DNA from: Candidatus Omnitrophota bacterium
GTDB lineage: Bacteria > Omnitrophota > Omnitrophia > Omnitrophales > Danuiimicrobiaceae
NCBI GenBank assembly: GCA_016177155.1
Contig: JACOVU010000030.1
Coordinates: 1 to 40,958, forward strand
Direction: 5' to 3'
DNA length: 40,958 bases
Each line of letters starts with the position of its first letter. Within the stretch, counting starts at the first letter, position 1. The position numbers and the translations under genes were made by a program. Shown piece by piece: positions 706 through 30,361 of this stretch. The notes under the pieces were generated by a model. It did not search any database, was not told the DNA's origin, and worked only from the letters and a program-made list of their open reading frames with translations.

Positions 706-1110
706 TTATTTATTTTTGATTTCGCTCACAACAAACATTTTCTGGCCAAAAATATGATCATTGGCAAAAATCCGAAACTCATATTGCCCGGGGTGTGGAA
801 ACCTGAGGCCTTTCAAATTAAAAACAAGTTCATGGCTTGAAAGCGGATCGTCAATATGAACGGCTTCGGGCGCTTCGCAATTGGCAACCACCACCTCCGT
901 ATGTAGATCTCCAAGCTCAAGACGAAATCGGTAATCTCCTCTCGCATCGGTGAGCTTAACATAAACACTTAAGGAATGATGGACGGCGGGAAATTGATGG
1001 GCCCCAATGTTCTCGAATATTCCAACTAGACTCTTCTTATTTGTTCCGTGCTCAGTCAACACTTGATCGCAGATGAGCATCGCATTGGTTTTCGGTATCG
1101 GTAAACTCAT
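706..1110 (-). CDS. Hypothetical small soluble protein (DUF-like), paralog of 14721-15110
   Basis: ORF 706-1140. The 1140 start is TTG, and the first ATG (MSLPIPK...) is at 1110. No motif I can name. It lies 16 nt upstream of, and is co-directional with, the SPFH gene. It shares a C(D/R)x...(H/R)(Q/R)FPA pattern with the 14721-15110 product. Confidence 0.55.
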   Translation of the reverse strand: MSLPIPKTNAMLICDQVLTEHGTNKKSLVGIFENIGAHQFPAVHHSLSVYVKLTDARGDYRFRLELGDLHTEVVVANCEAPEAVHIDDPLSSHELVFNLKGLRFPHPGQYEFRIFANDHIFGQKMFVVSEIKNK

Positions 1111-1185
1111 AATGTGGCAGTATACCTTCTTTGCTCGCAAGACTCAACTCTATGTTAGAATCTGTCCGTCTAAAGGGAATTTAGA

Positions 1186-1929
1186 ATGGATACCAACTTG
1201 AAGCACGCTCTGGAAGAACTTAAGAAATCAAAACACATAATCGCTTTCACGGGAGCGGGCATTTCACAAGAGAGCGGCATCCCCACCTTCCGTGGATCGG
1301 GGGGCGGCTTTTGGCGCAATTTTCGACTAGAGGAAGTGGCGACACCTCAAGCCTTCCTAAAAAATCCGAGACTCGTGTGGGATTTTTACCTGGAGCGAAG
1401 AAAGCTCGCCAAAGAAGTTCAGCCGAACGCGGCACACAAAGCCTTTGCAGCCTGGGAGAAAATATTTCCGTTCGTGGGAGTTGTCACCCAAAATATCGAC
1501 GGCCTTCACGAACAAGCAGGAAGTCGGAACATCCAAGAACTTCATGGCAGCCTTTGGCGATCAAAATGTAGCCGCTGCGGGAAGACCGTTCAAGACTTGA
1601 ATCTTACTTACTCAGAACTTCCGCACTGCCGTGACTGTGGTGGGCTCATGCGCCCCGATATCGTATGGTTCGGAGAAGAACTTAATCCAAATACGATCAA
1701 TCAAGCCCTAGAGTGGATGCGAAAAGCCGACCTGATTTTCGTCATTGGCACTTCAGGTGTAGTAGAACCTGCGGCCAGTTTTGTACGCGGTGCGAAACGT
1801 TACGGGGCTTTTATCGCAGAGGTGAATGTTGAAGAAACTGCGTTGACTTATGTTGCTGATCTATTCCTTCGTGGAAAATCGAGTGAAATTTTTTCTAGCC
1901 TTTCAGAAGCCATTACTCAACCAACTTAA
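1186..1929 (+). CDS. cobB: NAD-dependent protein deacylase, Sir2 family (CobB-type)
   Basis: GAGISQESGIPTFRG NAD-binding motif, QNIDGLH catalytic His region, and a Zn ribbon (CSRCG...CRDCGG). Length is 247 aa. Confidence 0.9.
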   Translation: MDTNLKHALEELKKSKHIIAFTGAGISQESGIPTFRGSGGGFWRNFRLEEVATPQAFLKNPRLVWDFYLERRKLAKEVQPNAAHKAFAAWEKIFPFVGVVTQNIDGLHEQAGSRNIQELHGSLWRSKCSRCGKTVQDLNLTYSELPHCRDCGGLMRPDIVWFGEELNPNTINQALEWMRKADLIFVIGTSGVVEPAASFVRGAKRYGAFIAEVNVEETALTYVADLFLRGKSSEIFSSLSEAITQPT

Positions 1930-3214: not shown

Positions 3215-4129
3215 TTAAGTAGCTTGAGGGAGCGTCATCCAGGGGACTTTCTTAAAACCGCCGCTGAGAAACATGAAAACCAATCGTCTTTTCAATCGAA
3301 GCCAGGGACTTTTCATTCCCCATCTGTAATATTGATGCCGAACTCGATAGGTCAAAAGATCAATCTGGTAAATATGAGGACTGTAACACACTGGGTTTCT
3401 CCCAGTTAAAATTTTAACCGCTTCGCTTGCAGTTAAAGCCCCCACCAGCATTAAGCCAGGGGCAACGCTTGCGGCCCGTCGCGTTTCAAAACTGATCGCC
3501 TTTGGTTTGATATACTTAAGACAAAGCAACGAAGGCGAAAGGCCGAAGCTAAGCGCAAACTTTTTTTCTATCTCAGTCATATCCTCTTGTAAATCAAAAT
3601 AATCTTCGTAACGCATCCCATCGGGCGCAAAGGTAATGACAGAAGCCCCAAACCCTAAAGGGCAAGAGGTAATGGCGGTAAGCTGCTTTTCACGGCTTCT
3701 CTGAAACAGGGTAAGCTTTGCTTCTTGTTCGAAGTAATCAATCCCATCGATCACGAGATCGACGCCATCAAGAAATGCATCTACATTCTCTCTCGTAATG
3801 CGGGATGGAAACACGTCTACTCTTGCCTCAGGATTAATGGACAGAATCCGATCATGAATCACCTCAGTCTTAGGGCGACCCAGAGTATCTTTAAACGCTC
3901 CTGCTTGGCGGTTCACGTTCGAAATCTCAAACGTATCAGGATCGGCAATCTTAAACTGGCCTACGCCGAGACGCGCTAAAGCATCTACTTGATATCCTCC
4001 TGCTCCGCCAAGCCCTGCTACCGCCACGCAAGAAGTTCGCAAACATTCCTGTTCTTCCGCTGAAAGCCAACCGATATTTCGATCAAAAGCTTCTTGGTAA
4101 TTAAAAGGTCGATTTTGGTTTAAGTTCAT
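3215..4129 (-). CDS. ThiF/MoeB/HesA-family E1-like adenylyltransferase
   Basis: VAVAGLGGAGGY nucleotide-binding loop, then DPDTFEISNVNRQ. The ATG at 4129 (MNLNQ) is preferred over 4159 because AAGGAGG lies 5 nt upstream. It overlaps the upstream gene by 29 nt. I see no rhodanese domain and no obvious ubiquitin-like or peptide partner nearby. Confidence 0.8.
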   Translation of the reverse strand: MNLNQNRPFNYQEAFDRNIGWLSAEEQECLRTSCVAVAGLGGAGGYQVDALARLGVGQFKIADPDTFEISNVNRQAGAFKDTLGRPKTEVIHDRILSINPEARVDVFPSRITRENVDAFLDGVDLVIDGIDYFEQEAKLTLFQRSREKQLTAITSCPLGFGASVITFAPDGMRYEDYFDLQEDMTEIEKKFALSFGLSPSLLCLKYIKPKAISFETRRAASVAPGLMLVGALTASEAVKILTGRNPVCYSPHIYQIDLLTYRVRHQYYRWGMKSPWLRLKRRLVFMFLSGGFKKVPWMTLPQAT

Positions 4130-4964
4130 CTGCCCCTCCTTGATCAGAAAAAATGTCATGACTCGATTGTAAGTAACTTTGAAGAATAAAGAGATCCTCG
4201 TCTGGCAGTGGTTTTGCTTCTTCGAAAAGGCGTTTCAGAATTTGCATATCCCAATGGGCAGGCTTTGTTCGGAATAAATTTGGATTGGATTCCTTTAAAA
4301 AAAATGTTTGGACTGCCTGATTCTTAAAACGAGGATCACAAAAGTGAGGAATATCCAAATGCATTGGAATCGCTGGATGCGAACGCACGATAGAATAAGC
4401 TTTGACGGTTCCAATTGGCTGAAACGTTAAGGAGCGATAAAGAAGCTCATGTTTGGGATGAATGGTAATGACAAGATCCGTCACGCCAGCGAAACGCGCA
4501 TAGTTAAATAAAAATCGGAAAAGATTAAAAATCGTTCCGATTTTGGTCGTATGCTTTCCAGCACTTCTTTTTCCGCTGATTCCCTTGCGTGAACTCGCAA
4601 GCAAACTAATTTCTGCAAGATGCCGTCCTTCCGATCGAATCGCGTTGATTTCATCTCGAAACAAAGTTTCCATCGGAAGTCCACAGGAAGAATCTAAGAT
4701 GACAGATGCCGTACCGAAAACTTGAGACATGTTCCGGTCTAAGAAAAGAAAGGTCCGTGATTCCGGCAACAAACAAAAATAAGTGTAATGTATCTTTGAA
4801 AACTTTTCGTTACAATATCCACGAGACAGATATTCTTGATAAACCAACTGATAAGCTTCCCTGAGTTCTTCAAAGCTTTGCGCAATTCGACAATCAAAGA
4901 GTTCAGGTTGAATAACAGTTTTCAAACAGATTTTGTCAGCAAATGATTGAGACTCGGGGATCAT
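4101..4964 (-). CDS. GNAT-fold N-acyltransferase, FeeM / N-acyl amino acid synthase-like (autoinducer-synthase-like fold)
   Basis: Pattern LREAYQLVYQEYLSRGY ... FGTASVILDSSCGLPMETLF ... HLAEISLLASS resembles long-chain N-acyl amino acid synthase and OlsB-like acyltransferases. This is recognised from memory only. The track start at 4973 is GTG inside a repeat arm. ATG at 4964 is more likely. Confidence 0.5.
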   Translation of the reverse strand: MIPESQSFADKICLKTVIQPELFDCRIAQSFEELREAYQLVYQEYLSRGYCNEKFSKIHYTYFCLLPESRTFLFLDRNMSQVFGTASVILDSSCGLPMETLFRDEINAIRSEGRHLAEISLLASSRKGISGKRSAGKHTTKIGTIFNLFRFLFNYARFAGVTDLVITIHPKHELLYRSLTFQPIGTVKAYSIVRSHPAIPMHLDIPHFCDPRFKNQAVQTFFLKESNPNLFRTKPAHWDMQILKRLFEEAKPLPDEDLFILQSYLQSSHDIFSDQGGADELKPKSTF

Positions 4965-5092
4965 CCCAACCACCTGCTTTTCTGCCGTTTCACAGGGTCA
5001 TATTTCGAAAGAAACGGCAGGATTTCCTTCCCAAATAAAAGAGCGCTTGGTCTTAAGTCAACGCGCTCTTGTAAAGCAGGTGGTGGGATCAT
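4961..5092. repeat. Stop-to-start inverted-repeat intergenic element, copy A (subfamily CCACCTGCTT)
   Basis: Arms are tcATCCCAACCACCTGCTTT (4961-4980) and AAAGCAGGTGGTGGGATca (5073-5091). Two internal hairpins: ctgccgtttc/gaaacggcag and aagagcgc/gcgctctt. TCAT occurs at both ends on the plus strand, which is ATGA on the gene strand. Confidence 0.85.
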
Positions 5093-5122: not shown

Positions 5123-5524
5123 TCAACACGGATCTATATTGACTAACTGCTCAGGTTTTACCCCGCTTAACAAACGTGAAACCCCCTCTAAGAGTCTTTC
5201 AAAATTGAGGGGTTTGCTGTAGAGAACATATTGCCCCGCTGAATTTTGTTTTTGAGAATGTTCTTCAATGAGGGCGGTCACAAAAATGACAGGAACTTTA
5301 GCGTCAAACCTAGCCTCTAAAAGGTCGTGGTAAATTTCGGTTCCCAATTTACCATTAAGCCAAATGTCTAAAATGATAAGGTCAGGCTTGAAAGCAAGAG
5401 CTTTTTCCCAAAACTGACTTCCATTGCTGGCTATTTCCACTTCGAATCCGTGCTTCGAAAGTTTAAATTTGAGCAAGGTAAGAATCGATGCTTCGTCGTC
5501 AACCACAAGAATTTTTTTCTTCAC
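5123..5524 (-). CDS. Stand-alone response regulator receiver (CheY-like)
   Basis: ILVVDDE, the phospho-acceptor context LIILDIWL, and a conserved K region (LYSKP). No output domain. GTG start at 5524. Confidence 0.85.
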   Translation of the reverse strand: MKKKILVVDDEASILTLLKFKLSKHGFEVEIASNGSQFWEKALAFKPDLIILDIWLNGKLGTEIYHDLLEARFDAKVPVIFVTALIEEHSQKQNSAGQYVLYSKPLNFERLLEGVSRLLSGVKPEQLVNIDPC

Positions 5525-13768: not shown

Positions 13769-14169
13769 GTTCCGCGGTAGGTTGCAAATGAACTTTCGGT
13801 TTCCCAAAGCGTGACGCGCATGACGGGAAGTTTTTGAGATCTTGTGTAATCAAAAATAAGCCTGGCGATTGATTCAGCCGTTGGATTTTCATCCATCACA
13901 TAGAAACGCTCTTTTTTCTCCTTAAGAAGCGGAATTAAGGGATCGTCCTTTCTGAGGAGCATCGTATGGTCCAGCGTTCGATCGATCCAATCTTTAATAG
14001 CATTCTTAATTTCCGAGAAATCGACCACCATTCCCCGGCCATCCAGCTTTTCACGTTCGAGCTCAACTTCCACTTTTCCGTTGTGACCGTGGAGGTACTT
14101 ACACGGCCCATCATAATTCATAAGACGGTGGCCATAGCAGAAATAGATCTCTTTGGTGACGGTATACAT
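13765..14169 (-). CDS. queD: 6-carboxytetrahydropterin synthase / 6-pyruvoyl-tetrahydropterin synthase family
   Basis: CYGHRL ... HGHN Zn and catalytic motifs. Length of 134 aa is typical of QueD/PTPS. Confidence 0.85.
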   Translation of the reverse strand: MYTVTKEIYFCYGHRLMNYDGPCKYLHGHNGKVEVELEREKLDGRGMVVDFSEIKNAIKDWIDRTLDHTMLLRKDDPLIPLLKEKKERFYVMDENPTAESIARLIFDYTRSQKLPVMRVTLWETESSFATYRGT

Positions 14170-14170
14170 C

Positions 14171-14587
14171 TTAATCGTTTCGCTTCAAACGGGGCGTGAG
14201 TGTCGTGGTGCTCGTGAATAATGGATTGTGTTGAGAGAGCTGAACATCATTGGAAAAAGTGGGCGACTGATTGAGTCCGTAACCTGTTCTCGCGTTATAA
14301 GCTCCGTTCCAACCCAGGCGTTCTGAGTTTAAACGGCCGGGAATCGGAATGTTCTGTTGAAGGCTTGCTCCGCTTACTCCAGCATTCAGAGAAGGTCCGC
14401 TTCCGAATTGAGTGGAATAGCTGGGTGCAGATTGATGAAGGGCTCCTTGGGGATTCCCCTGCGCCAATTGGGTAAGAGCGCCTGTGCCCCTCTTGGCCCA
14501 CTCGTCATAAGCCTCGGCAAACACAGAGTGCGGCATGGTAAAAAGGTAGGCAATGGTAAGAACAGCAAAGCCGAAATTCTTGATCAT
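14171..14587 (-). CDS. Secreted low-complexity hypothetical protein
   Basis: Signal peptide (MIKNFGFAVLTIAYLFTMPHSVFA), then a Gly/Ser/Asn/Gln-rich sequence. It ends 1 nt before the queD start. Confidence 0.5.
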   Translation of the reverse strand: MIKNFGFAVLTIAYLFTMPHSVFAEAYDEWAKRGTGALTQLAQGNPQGALHQSAPSYSTQFGSGPSLNAGVSGASLQQNIPIPGRLNSERLGWNGAYNARTGYGLNQSPTFSNDVQLSQHNPLFTSTTTLTPRLKRND

Positions 14588-17362: not shown

Positions 17363-17761
17363 TCAAGTCAGAAAAGGAGTGACGCGTTGATAAAGCGGCG
17401 GACCAAGAATGATGAATCCGATGACAACTGCTCCCACGCACGCAATTAAAACTGCAGCAGCAGCAATGTCTTTGGCGCGCTTCACAATGCGAGAGTAGCG
17501 CTGGCCTATTACCAAATCGGCCATAATTTCAAGAACCGTGTTAAATGCTTCTGCCGCCCAAACGAGTGCGATGGCAACAATGATAAGCGCCCAACCCGGA
17601 CGATCGATATCAAGCCACCAAGCAAAATCGAGCGCAAGAATGGTCGCGAAGGCATGTACCCAAGCGTTGTGCTCTGTGAAGAGCATGTCTCGAAACCCTG
17701 CAAAGCCACGTTTAATGCTTTCAAACCGAGATCGAATCGAGAACCGTTGTTTTCCTTTCAT
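17363..17761 (-). CDS. dgkA: Diacylglycerol/undecaprenol kinase family (prokaryotic DAGK)
   Basis: 132 aa with three TM helices and AEAFNTVLEIMAD (E..NT.IE signature). Confidence 0.85.
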   Translation of the reverse strand: MKGKQRFSIRSRFESIKRGFAGFRDMLFTEHNAWVHAFATILALDFAWWLDIDRPGWALIIVAIALVWAAEAFNTVLEIMADLVIGQRYSRIVKRAKDIAAAAVLIACVGAVVIGFIILGPPLYQRVTPFLT

Positions 17762-17871
17762 CCCCCACCACTTTCGATATCACCCGTTGAGTTATAAATA
17801 TAACGTTTGTTTTCAATCAACCGTACGAACATTAGCATCAACCTTATTTTTAGAAAGTGGTGGGGGATCAT
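17758..17871. repeat. Stop-to-start inverted-repeat intergenic element, copy B (subfamily CCACTTTC)
   Basis: ATCCCCCACCACTTTC (17760-17775) has a perfect 16-nt complement, GAAAGTGGTGGGGGAT (17854-17869). On the gene strand it runs from the ATGA holding the arsC-like TGA stop to the ATGA holding the dgkA ATG. Confidence 0.9.
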
Positions 17872-19118: not shown

Positions 19119-19608
19119 TGGTCACAGGTTGACTGTGGAATACAACATCATAGTTGATCAATTTCCCATCCTGATAAACAAATTTCCCAGAAAAAAACCG
19201 TCCTTCATCCAACCACTTGAGAAAAATGGGGTCTCCTTCCCAAAGTGGAAGTTTTGAAACTTGGTCGTCTTCAATCCACTCAAGCTTTCCCTCGGGCGAA
19301 TCTGTTTGTAGGGGCAATTCATGAATTGCCCCTACAAATTCCGTGGCTACATAGACATAAACATACCAATCCTCTTCATCTTTAAACGCAGGAAAAGCCA
19401 AAATTCCCCGAAGCGATGGATTCTGAATCGTAAGTCCAGATTCTTCCTTCACTTCCCGAATCACGCACTCCTCTGGCGTCTCGCCTAAACGGATTTTACC
19501 GCCGAGGCCGTTCCATTTTCCCCCATGAATATCGCCTGCTCTTTTATTTCGATTCATCATCAGAGTTTTATTGTCTTTCTTGATATAACAGAGGGTGGCA
19601 AGTTTCAT
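19105..19608 (-). CDS. Nudix hydrolase (MutT-like)
   Basis: Nudix box GGKIRLGETPEECVIREVKEESGL. The track ORF extends to 19770, but that extension reads through repeat DNA. The real start, MKLATLCYI, is the ATG at 19608. Confidence 0.85.
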   Translation of the reverse strand: MKLATLCYIKKDNKTLMMNRNKRAGDIHGGKWNGLGGKIRLGETPEECVIREVKEESGLTIQNPSLRGILAFPAFKDEEDWYVYVYVATEFVGAIHELPLQTDSPEGKLEWIEDDQVSKLPLWEGDPIFLKWLDEGRFFSGKFVYQDGKLINYDVVFHSQPVTNACR

Positions 19609-19798
19609 CCCCCACCACTTTCGTTGGAAGAACTTGAATCTGTCATTGTCCGCCAAAAATCGGACGGATCCGTCCTCTGGCGGACGAGGAGGCCGTCGGC
19701 CGACGAAGCAATCCCAAAGATTGCTTCCCGCCGAAGGCGAGGCTCGCCAAAGGCGGCGCTTCGCTCGCAATGACGTGCAGGAAAGTGGTGGGGGATCA
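19605..19798. repeat. Stop-to-start inverted-repeat intergenic element, copy C, carrying a nested second repeat
   Basis: Same 16-nt arms as copy B (19607-19622 and 19781-19796). The interior contains cgtcattgcgagcgaagcg... and gattgcttcgtcggccgacggcctcctcg units related to the repeat at 39722-39823. Confidence 0.9.
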
Positions 19799-27096: not shown

Positions 27097-27258
27097 TTAC
27101 TTATTCAAAATTAATTTTCCTGCCTTGGTAATTAAAAGACGGTACTGATCGCGGGCATGTTCAATGATCACTTCCCGCCTACCTTCAAAAAGCTCCTCGG
27201 AACGAATGACGCGTTTATCGGAAGATTCCGCTCTCCTTTCGGAAGAAGAAGTGCTCAT
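27097..27258 (-). CDS. hemP: HemP/HmuP-family small hemin-uptake protein
   Basis: The C-terminal IRSEELFEGRREVIIEHARDQYRLLITKAGKLILNK matches the HemP signature. The track ORF runs to 27351, but that part is repeat copy D. The ATG at 27258 gives 53 aa. Confidence 0.7.
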   Translation of the reverse strand: MSTSSSERRAESSDKRVIRSEELFEGRREVIIEHARDQYRLLITKAGKLILNK

Positions 27259-27351
27259 CCCAACTACCTGCTTTCCCGCCGCAGGCGGATTATTTTCATC
27301 TTGTGAAACAAATAATTGGCCCTCCGGACCAAAAGCAGGTGGTGGGATCAT
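27255..27351. repeat. Stop-to-start inverted-repeat intergenic element, copy D (degenerate)
   Basis: Arms are tcATCCCAACTACCTGCTTT (27255-27274) and AAAGCAGGTGGTGGGATca (27332-27350). Inner hairpin ccgcc-gca-ggcgg. On the gene strand it spans the fur TGA to the hemP ATG. Confidence 0.8.
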
Positions 27352-28032: not shown

Positions 28033-28224
28033 CTGATTGACAAGGAACGATAAGAGCAAACCTGATCGAAAGATAGGGACGTCCTACTTCGCTTAGTCCT
28101 TAACGGCTAAGCTTCGTAGGACTCTTCGAAGCTGTGCCGACAAGGACACAGCGAAGGAGAGCAAAGCCGTGCGCCTAAAGCCAAAGGGGCTAAGGTAGGC
28201 AGGTTGCCGAATCTCCTGTCAGTA
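28033..28224 (+). ncRNA. GEMM-I-like cyclic-dinucleotide riboswitch candidate with an ~80-nt two-hairpin insertion
   Basis: ACGAUAAGAGCAAACCUGAUCGAAAGAUAGGGAC (28047-28080) and GCAAAGCCGUGCGCCUAAAGCCAAAGGGGCUAAGGUAGGCAGGUUGCCGAAUC (28161-28213) align block for block with my memory of the V. cholerae Vc2 aptamer (ACGCACAGGGCAAACC..CGAAAG..GGGACGCAAAGCC..CCUAAACC..GGUAGGUAGCGGGGUUACCGA). It is followed by an intrinsic terminator and lies upstream of pilin-like genes. Confidence 0.65.
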
Positions 28225-29245: not shown

Positions 29246-30259
29246 ATGAACCTATTTTTCAATTTGAACAATCGAAAAGGAATGATGCTGATTTGGTTTT
29301 ATTTACTGATCGGTGTATTGGTCATTACAGGAGGTAGCCTCTATAGCCTTGCGTTTCAAGAGTCTCGTCTCATTGCCATGGATCAGGCGCGCGACAAAGC
29401 ATTTTATGTTGCCGAAGGAGGTTTGGATAGAAAACTGGCCGAAATTCGCTCGGGAAGCATGAGTGCGGTTTACGGTTCGCTCGGCATTGGCAGTTACGCA
29501 GCAAGTTATGACAGCACGACTAAGAAAATTACAGCTCAAGGAACTGTAAATGGTATCACTAAAACCATTATTGCTGTAGTTTCAAAAACGATCCCGCCCG
29601 GGGCAAAGGCGGCGATTACCTCGGAAGGCGACATGAGTTTTAACGGAAACATTACAGTAGACGGTCGAGACCACGATGCAAGCGGTAACTTAACAGGCGA
29701 CCCTGGTACTTATGGTGCGTCGAGCGGTGGAACGGTCACTCAAAGTGGGAGTTCGGATATCGGCGGAAATGGAATCGCGCCCTCAAGCCCTGCTAATCCT
29801 GCGACGATTCAACAAGGCTCGAGTAACCCTTTTAATAGCCCCGAAGAACTGCTTGGAGTTCCCTCTGGAAGTCTGGATCAGTACAAAACAGCCACTCCGC
29901 CATCGACCCCTTTCAATGGTATTGTCTACTACACCGGAGATTCGTGGATCGCACCTGACTTGGGAACTGAAAGCAATCCCAGCACAGGAATCTTGATTGT
30001 CCATAATGCCACGGGCGATGCCCTCCTCAAAAATATCCATGGCTACTTCAAAGGAATTATCATCGCCGACGACATTGTGCACATTAACGGAAATGCTACG
30101 ATCATCGGAGGGGTCATCGCCAAAACCTCAACCGGTACGACCGGGGATGGATCAGCGGAAGTTCTATATAGCTCGTCAGTTTTGGAAGATCTTCCTGCCG
30201 GAAATTATACAACCGTATCTTGGGAAGACACGCAAAATCCGTCGTATACCTATTTATGA
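29246..30259 (+). CDS. PilX-N-like pilus-associated protein with Gly/Ser/Thr-rich repetitive C-terminal domain
   Basis: N-terminal hydrophobic helix followed by LAFQESRLIAMDQARDKAFYVAEGGLD (PilX N-terminal-like). The C-terminal half has GxIIxxD/GN repeats suggesting a beta-helix. Confidence 0.6.
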   Translation: MNLFFNLNNRKGMMLIWFYLLIGVLVITGGSLYSLAFQESRLIAMDQARDKAFYVAEGGLDRKLAEIRSGSMSAVYGSLGIGSYAASYDSTTKKITAQGTVNGITKTIIAVVSKTIPPGAKAAITSEGDMSFNGNITVDGRDHDASGNLTGDPGTYGASSGGTVTQSGSSDIGGNGIAPSSPANPATIQQGSSNPFNSPEELLGVPSGSLDQYKTATPPSTPFNGIVYYTGDSWIAPDLGTESNPSTGILIVHNATGDALLKNIHGYFKGIIIADDIVHINGNATIIGGVIAKTSTGTTGDGSAEVLYSSSVLEDLPAGNYTTVSWEDTQNPSYTYL

Positions 30260-30361
30260 TCCCAACCACCTGCTTGTCCCCCGTATGGGGGAATCTCTTT
30301 AGAGATACAAGAGCGCACCCACTCCTGGAAGTGCGCTCTTGCCAAGCAGGTGGTGGGATGA
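30256..30361. repeat. Stop-to-start inverted-repeat intergenic element, copy E
   Basis: atgATCCCAACCACCTGCTTG (30256-30276) and CAAGCAGGTGGTGGGATga (30343-30361). Internal hairpins ccccc-gta-tggggg and aagagcgc/gcgctctt. ATGA at both ends on the plus strand. Confidence 0.9.

Follow-up and report, generated by a model that had tools for sequence, protein, structure and literature searches.

In an Omnitrophota genome, the gene of a putative N-acyl amino acid synthase starts at the edge of an inverted repeat that is bracketed on both sides by the same short sequence, which raises the question of whether these flanks belong to the element or to the host DNA that it has entered. The initial annotation of the locus had argued for a duplicated host target, based on three related copies whose flanks appeared to follow the direction of the surrounding genes. 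Here, we have analyzed the repeat in the window, by which we refer to the whole stretch of 40,958 nucleotides under study, in the complete assembly it belongs to and in related genomes.

Anatomy of the repeat at the acyltransferase start codon

Reading the window sequence at the respective coordinates locates TCAT at positions 4961-4964 and a second TCAT at 5089-5092. The direct repeat described in the initial annotation is thus real, although its duplicated part is shorter than the proposed tetranucleotide and comprises the three nucleotides TCA, which correspond to TGA on the gene strand, while the T and A next to them constitute the ends of the element itself. The repeat delimited by these ends, termed copy A (Table 1), terminates in inverted repeats of the form T-CCC(A)ACCACC...GGTGGTGGG-A, whose arms of about 16 nt pair with one bulged A. 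On the plus strand, the left arm reads CCCAACCACCTGCTT from position 4965 and the right arm AAGCAGGTGGTGGG up to position 5087, with the extra A residing in the left arm. The general layout, which copy A has in common with longer relatives carrying a GIY-YIG gene, can be described as arm-H1-(gene)-H1-H2-arm, where H1 and H2 refer to inner hairpins.

On the gene strand, the original start codon is found at 5092..5090, while the rebuilt ATG at 4964..4962 is composed of the last base of the element and the start-proximal copy of TGA, and is directly preceded by the Shine-Dalgarno (SD)-like arm AAAGCAGGTGGTTGGGA. As previously recognized, this rebuilt ATG opens the acyltransferase gene, which encodes a FeeM-like protein of 287 residues when counted from this codon. 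When predicted by a mechanical ORF scan, the gene is extended as far as a GTG (4973) within the repeat arm (4965-4973). On the opposite side, the receiver gene does not end in the repeat, in line with the initial description, but its stop codon at 5125..5123 is separated from the left-hand ATGA (5092..5089) by 30 nt instead of 28. The closest homologues of the neighboring NtrC-type gene, with 59-65% identity, are found in groundwater MAGs of Candidatus Omnitrophota.

The RNA of copy A, read from the gene (minus) strand, is predicted to fold with -59.4 kcal/mol (z = -6.6 compared to shuffled sequences) into a 17-bp outer helix that surrounds both inner hairpins and buries the rebuilt start region. 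Neither a promoter nor a terminator was identified in a scan of copy A, and the repeat is covered by no Rfam family. Elsewhere in the window, at 28140-28211, Rfam reports a match to the c-di-GMP-I riboswitch with 41.4 bits.

Four further copies (B-E) are contained in the window. The plus-strand left arms of D and E carry the same extra A as the one of A, and the earlier assignment of all three to a single intrinsic orientation is thus upheld, as is the inner stem shared by A and E beside their right arms (5039-5070 in A and 30309-30340 in E, with halves at 30309-30316 and 30333-30340). In this common plus-strand orientation, A and D are sense to minus-strand genes and flanked by TCA...TCA, while E is antisense to plus-strand genes and flanked by TGA...TGA. 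A and E therefore combine the same plus-strand orientation with opposite gene strands.

Table 1. Features of copy A, other copies of the repeat in the window and copies with coding capacity in the same genome. Positions refer to the window except for the last two rows.
Feature	Position	Strand	Description
Copy A	4964..5088	-	125 nt, first T to last A; non-coding; sense to host gene
Target duplication, start-proximal	4961..4963	-	TCA on plus, TGA on gene strand; also through-frame stop codon
Target duplication, upstream	5089..5091	-	TGA on gene strand
Terminal inverted repeat arm with extra A	4964..4980	.	T-CCCAACCACCTGCTTT on plus; SD-like arm AAAGCAGGTGGTTGGGA on gene strand
Other terminal inverted repeat arm	5073..5088	.	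AAAGCAGGTGGTGGG-A on plus; C-rich and anti-SD-like on gene strand
Inner hairpin H1	5039..5070	.	aagagcgc 5039-5046 / gcgctctt 5063-5070
Inner hairpin H2	4982..5020	.	ctgccgtttc ... gaaacggcag; adjoins start-proximal arm
Through-frame of copy A	4961..5092	-	43 codons, MIPPPALQERVDLRPSALLFGKEILPFLSKYDPVKRQKSRWLG followed by stop; old ATG to TGA (4963..4961) overlapping rebuilt ATG (ATGA)
Host gene downstream of copy A	4101..4964	-	FeeM-like N-acyl amino acid synthase, PF21926, E = 4e-33
Host gene upstream of copy A	5123..5524	-	Single-domain response-regulator receiver, PF00072
Copy B	17761..17867	.	CCCCCACCACTTTC subfamily; TCA flanks
Copy C	19608..19795	.	CCCCCACCACTTTC subfamily; 188 nt; TCA flanks
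Copy D	27258..27347	-	90 nt; subfamily other than that of A; TCA at 27255-27257 and 27348-27350
Copy E	30260..30358	-	99 nt; TGA at 30257-30259 and 30359-30361; antisense to plus-strand host genes
Coding copy	C78:9935-10254		Carries GIY-YIG gene
Coding copy	C70 ~13907-14235		Carries GIY-YIG gene

Polarity of the flanks and orientation of the element

A scan of the whole 1.38-Mb assembly, which consists of 147 contigs and represents an 86% complete genome, has identified at least 71 complete copies with lengths of 47-320 nt, each of which starts with T-CCC and finishes with GGG-A. Since another 83 matches of the arm motif were found outside complete copies, many of them by chance and a number at contig ends, the true copy count is probably higher. 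The triplets on both sides of the element are identical in 67 of the 71 copies (TGA 29, TCA 29, TTA 5, TAA 3, TGG 1), with TGA/TCA accounting for 58 and TAA/TTA for eight cases, and none of the 71 shows mixed TGA/TCA flanks. Chance does not account for this agreement or for the strong RNA fold of copy A. In five other genomes we found 27 further copies, with TGA flanks in 25.

Several copies deviate from the common arrangement. The copy flanked by TGG...TGG is located at an ATGG start codon (C131:2193-2297), which is still rebuilt, the third target base not being strictly A. Tandem copies of different subfamilies with one TGA between them are found at C124:3051-3256, at C69:10325-10518 and at a locus of the genome G003 (L040:706-962), the ATGA rebuilt by one copy being itself a target for the next. 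The eight copies with TAA/TTA flanks, including those at C15:4515, C85:4205, C115:1987, C115:30014, C128:1327, C99:1338 and C105:938, are not placed at start codons. Their rebuilt pre-insertion sites contain TATAAT in five of eight cases (four of them as TGnTATAAT) and GATAAT in two more, with the duplicated TAA forming the middle of a hexamer that is rebuilt by the first T of the element. Judged by these motifs, they look like a second target class consisting of -10 promoter boxes.

The initial annotation had suggested comparing the flanks with the strand of the host genes across the genome. In this comparison, the longest ORFs to either side served to call the gene strand, independently of the flank. 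We found all 43 flank calls with TGA to coincide with plus-strand genes and 47 of 51 with TCA to coincide with minus-strand genes, and the flanks thus track the orientation of the host genes as had been claimed. The base preceding the duplication (A 51, G 6, T 2, C 0) mirrors the usage of start codons and the base following it shows a different distribution (A 30, T 17, G 7, C 5), which argues against a symmetric DNA motif. Of 58 TGA-flanked copies, 51 have a rebuilt ATG that begins an ORF of 75 codons or more, and in about 35 an ORF of this minimum length ends at the left TGA. About 90% of TGA-flanked copies are located at start codons, whereas the estimated 480 eligible starts and 3,522 other intergenic TGA/TCA sites would predict about 12%. 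The targets retained in this genome are almost always a TGA whose preceding base begins a start codon, (A/G/T)TGA, frequently within an ATGA stop/start overlap, an association that may reflect either targeting or selective retention.

The orientation of the element relative to the gene allows a distinction between mechanisms, since a duplication originating from a staggered cut permits insertion either way round, whereas a strand-specific single-strand insertion would lock the orientation. Orienting copies by alignment to their coding parents was dropped, as the self-complementary inner hairpins left 75 of 83 copies ambiguous. We have thus relied on the position of the AAGAGCGC hairpin (H1), in copies from this genome and the 27 copies from five others, and on similarity clusters. 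Hairpin-marked copies comprise 16 in sense and 15 in antisense orientation, which becomes 15:15 once the single coding copy is left out. The similarity clusters hold both orientations with no inconsistent links, at ratios of 11:4, 8:1, 4:1, 2:2 and 2:1. The extra A, which is found on the arm away from H1 in 12 of 14 asymmetric hairpin-marked copies, can equally be used as orientation marker. The intrinsic orientation relative to the gene is close to random except in two biased subfamilies (8:1 and 7:1), while copies with coding capacity are always sense (5/5).

Related genomes provide a view on the sites prior to insertion. At the start of rplX, this genome contains the sequence GTTTGATCA-TGA-element-TGA-AACTTAAAAAAGG, and the equivalent site in the sister genome G002, GTTTGAACATGAAGCTTAAGAAAGG (in the region GTTTGAACATGAAGC), is empty with one TGA. 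The adk/map junction is a plain ATGA overlap with no element in four sister genomes, while in G003 an element of a different subfamily sits in the same ATGA. The presence of a single TGA at the empty sister sites implies that the triplet was duplicated on insertion. This evidence was drawn from copies in ribosomal operons in place of copy A, for which no orthologous empty site was found in genomes of the genus, the family or in closer Omnitrophota genomes: within genus and family, identity to the best homologues of the acyltransferase is limited to 35-45% and their contexts differ, and closer Omnitrophota genomes with the NtrC-receiver pair contain no adjacent FeeM gene. With the near-even distribution of orientations and the single-TGA empty sites, the central claim of the initial annotation holds: the flanks are a duplicated host target and not the ends of the element. 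We thus favor the staggered-cut duplication of host DNA over a strand-specific single-strand insertion.

Latter mechanism would apply if the tetranucleotide flanks were owned by the element and served as fixed cleavage sites of an HUH/Y1 single-strand element of the IS200/IS605 or REP/RAYT type, which inserts without duplication. The repeats are rich in hairpins, the genome encodes one Y1_Tnp/RAYT-like protein (C16) and an empty site with a single TGA would equally fit an insertion 3' of TGA. However, such elements hold a fixed orientation to their target motif, which conflicts with the observed ratio of 16:15 relative to TGA; mixed flanks are absent from all copies, the ends are true inverted repeats in place of asymmetric subterminal hairpins and the Y1 gene is devoid of flanking repeat arms. 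Since neither a fixed orientation without duplication nor a repeat-flanked Y1 gene was found, an assignment to the IS200/IS605, PATE or REP-RAYT systems appears very improbable. The Y1 gene itself (C16 ~1100-1700, minus strand) is a single-copy gene encoding a protein of about 200 residues with HxH and YYEH motifs. Very improbable as well is the proposal that the polarity of the flanks would track the direction of replication and match the genes only through their co-orientation with it. Strand-biased insertion is known for IS200/IS605 and the assembly is fragmented, but the base before TGA matches start-codon usage, the rebuilt ATG opens a gene, and in copies A, D and E, located within 26 kb of one contig, the polarity switches exactly with the local gene strand. 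A similarly slim chance is left for the repeats being immobile and acting as vertically inherited or convergent intergenic regulatory hairpins, either as SD-masking attenuators or RNA stabilizers. Such a role would suit arms that mimic an anti-SD/SD pair, a buried start codon and a location at gene junctions, yet orthologous junctions in sister genomes lack the repeat and contain one TGA, the same ATGA in G003 holds another subfamily, near-identical copies are found beside unrelated genes, many contigs break within copies, and tandem and nested copies exist.

The explanation that we consider very likely to be correct as a whole is a mobile element that duplicates TGA at start codons, with copy A being a non-coding, MITE-like derivative of such a small element. 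Its ends, the terminal inverted repeats of about 16 nt with the sequences T-CCC(A)CCACC... and ...GGTGG(T)GGG-A, would enter a staggered target of three nucleotides, which becomes duplicated. Since TGA, asymmetric at its middle base only, would be part of the host DNA and the ends of the element are symmetric, the flank would read TGA on the sense strand of the gene and TCA on the opposite strand, irrespective of the way round in which the element has landed. The left copy of TGA would preserve the old start codon, together with the upstream stop codon if there is one, whereas the last A of the element together with the right copy would rebuild an ATG with the SD-like GGAGG/AGGTGG of the arm just upstream.

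Open frames through the element and its nuclease-encoding relatives

Translation might begin at the old ATG and follow an open frame across the hairpin as far as the TGA overlapping with the new ATG, where ribosomes would terminate and then re-initiate on the host gene, which in case of copy A encodes the FeeM-like acyltransferase. In 45 of 71 copies, the length of the element leaves a remainder of two when divided by three (p = 4e-7), and in 37 of the 39 TGA-flanked copies of this length class the through-frame is open, compared to 5 and 6 of 39 for the other two frames. After inversion of the element, the same frame is open in 18 of 39 copies, and in 21% of cases if interiors are shuffled. 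In both orientation classes, the used frame is kept open while the unused one decays; in copy A, the frame is open either way round. It is from these statistics that we infer translation of the through-frame, and its overlap with the rebuilt ATG suggests translational coupling. Since the outer helix buries the new start region, coupling would be the likeliest route to the expression of the host gene. Other lengths are accommodated differently: the lengths of copies D and E are divisible by three and their frames are open, which places the old ATG in frame with the host protein; in E, the left TGA provides the stop codon of the upstream gene, and reading proceeds in phase into the gene downstream.

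In two longer copies of this genome, with 320-329 nt, the same arms enclose a GIY-YIG gene (PF01541, E = 8.5e-15). Three more were found in other genomes, resulting in a total of five coding copies. In all five, the gene is located between the two arms, the halves of H1 bracket the gene and its frame ends in the right-hand TGA. In four, the host start codon (ATG or GTG) serves as the beginning of the frame, whereas the copy in G012 has a degenerate left junction. Pairwise dN/dS values of 0.12-0.30 indicate that the gene is under purifying selection, and the closest solved structure to its product is the UPF0213/Slx1-like protein BH0048 (1zg2, E = 4e-10). This gene of about 108 codons is the only cargo seen in the family, and the whole-assembly scan detected no copy with these arms that is longer than about 330 nt. 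The layout of copy A corresponds exactly to that of a coding element minus its gene. Directly before the GIY-YIG copy on C70, a gene of about 190 codons for a membrane-like protein (C70:13323-13906) begins with ATGATGATCCCACTACC and ends with ...GGTGGGATGA, and its left-arm-like start and right-arm-like end may be remnants of older insertions that were fused to the gene.

Whether the encoded protein is responsible for the movement of the family is a separate question. It is conceivable, and we put it forward as a tentative proposal, that the small GIY-YIG nuclease of the approximately 320-nt relatives mobilizes the non-coding copies in trans. GIY-YIG nucleases are not known to catalyze transposition. 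As small GIY-YIG genes are present in 33 of 41 relatives and common across the whole order, their co-occurrence with the repeat is not discriminating. A more speculative version would view the coding copies as complete autonomous transposons, whose sole gene, encoding the nuclease of about 108 residues, lacks its own start and stop codons: it would borrow start codon and ribosome-binding site from the host at the left junction and end in the duplicated TGA, which hands the ribosomes back, while the non-coding copies, copy A among them, would have arisen by deletion and be moved in trans. In this version, the landing of non-coding copies in either orientation may be a consequence of symmetric ends and a symmetric TNA target. 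Alternatively, a conventional DDE transposase might act in trans, with the GIY-YIG gene being passenger cargo or serving another role. Inverted repeats combined with a target duplication are the classic signature of DDE enzymes, the IS5/IS1031 and PIF/Harbinger groups typically duplicate a TNA target of 3 nt and, with the assembly being just 86% complete, a conventional DDE, IS110 or IS630-type transposase, none of which was detected, may have been missed. Still, we regard this explanation as rather unlikely, given that six transposase families (PF01609, PF13359, PF13586, PF00665, PF13358 and PF01548) have no match in this 86% complete genome, that no copy with these arms exceeds about 330 nt and that the only cargo seen is a GIY-YIG gene under purifying selection. 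If the GIY-YIG protein is the mobilizing enzyme, it would establish a novel transposition system of very small size, directed at a defined target of 3 nt, and if the coding copies are autonomous transposons, they would constitute a new mechanistic class, among the smallest known, that survives by translational transparency.

Relation to known mobile elements

The described features illustrate how a mobile element could fill a compact 1.4-Mb genome without killing genes, by hitting start codons that are rebuilt and kept open to ribosomes. About one in ten of the estimated 480 start codons of the NTGA type is occupied. Annotation has to recognize the element, as it will otherwise miscall both start codons and short leader frames at such junctions. 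No published description of this repeat family was found in a literature search.

The target duplication relates the family to the IS5 family (IS1031 group) and to PIF/Harbinger elements, in which short terminal inverted repeats accompany a TNA target duplication of 3 nt. The flanks described here conform to this pattern (TGA/TCA in 58 and TAA/TTA in eight copies, with TGG as one exception), but the families DDE_Tnp_1, DDE_Tnp_1_2 and DDE_Tnp_4 have no match in the 86% complete genome, and a specificity for start codons and a through-frame are not known from those families.

As in bacterial MITEs such as Correia/NEMIS of Neisseria, ERIC and RUP, the copies are non-coding, numerous, dispersed and, at 47-191 nt, too small for a transposase gene, with inverted repeats, a short duplication of fixed length (3 nt), strongly folding transcripts and sites at gene junctions where they are able to affect expression. 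Conversely, TGA at start codons is duplicated instead of TA, the ends rebuild start and stop codons and an open frame is kept. A parent insertion sequence with the same ends and a recognized transposase was not found in the 86% complete genome; the longer relatives encode only the nuclease of about 108 residues and no DDE transposase. A review of MITEs in prokaryotes from 2024 makes no mention of start codons (PMC10969869).

Rickettsia palindromic elements (RPE) are palindromic mobile repeats that are tolerated by in-frame translation with host genes (PMC10969869). The resemblance is restricted to this tolerance through translation, with copies D and E adding about 31-34 in-frame N-terminal residues if translated, whereas RPE insert inside coding sequences. 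We know of no report of start-codon targeting, TGA duplication or an ending in a stop/start overlap in RPE, nor of a nuclease-carrying parent.

A different parallel is offered by the Ssn nucleases and their NTS/SRM hairpin repeats (Chenal et al., 2025; PMC11893778). Both systems place a single-domain GIY-YIG gene between copies of a hairpin repeat that also occurs dispersed in the genome (PMC11893778), an arrangement found here in all five long copies, and the repeat core has a TCCC...GGGA flavor. The motif itself is not shared, with the NTS consensus finding 0 and the dRS3 pattern ATTCCC-N8-GGGAAT two matches in this genome. Ssn proteins belong to cd10448, whereas the closest solved structure to the protein described here is the UPF0213/Slx1-like BH0048, and NTS are hairpins of about 30 nt, which were not described there as start-codon insertions flanked by duplications. 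Moreover, Ssn was described to modulate transformation and not to move the repeats (PMC11893778). Taken together, the repeat behaves like a MITE, from which it differs in its TGA/start-codon target, its self-rebuilding ends, its maintained through-frame and a parent that carries only a nuclease.
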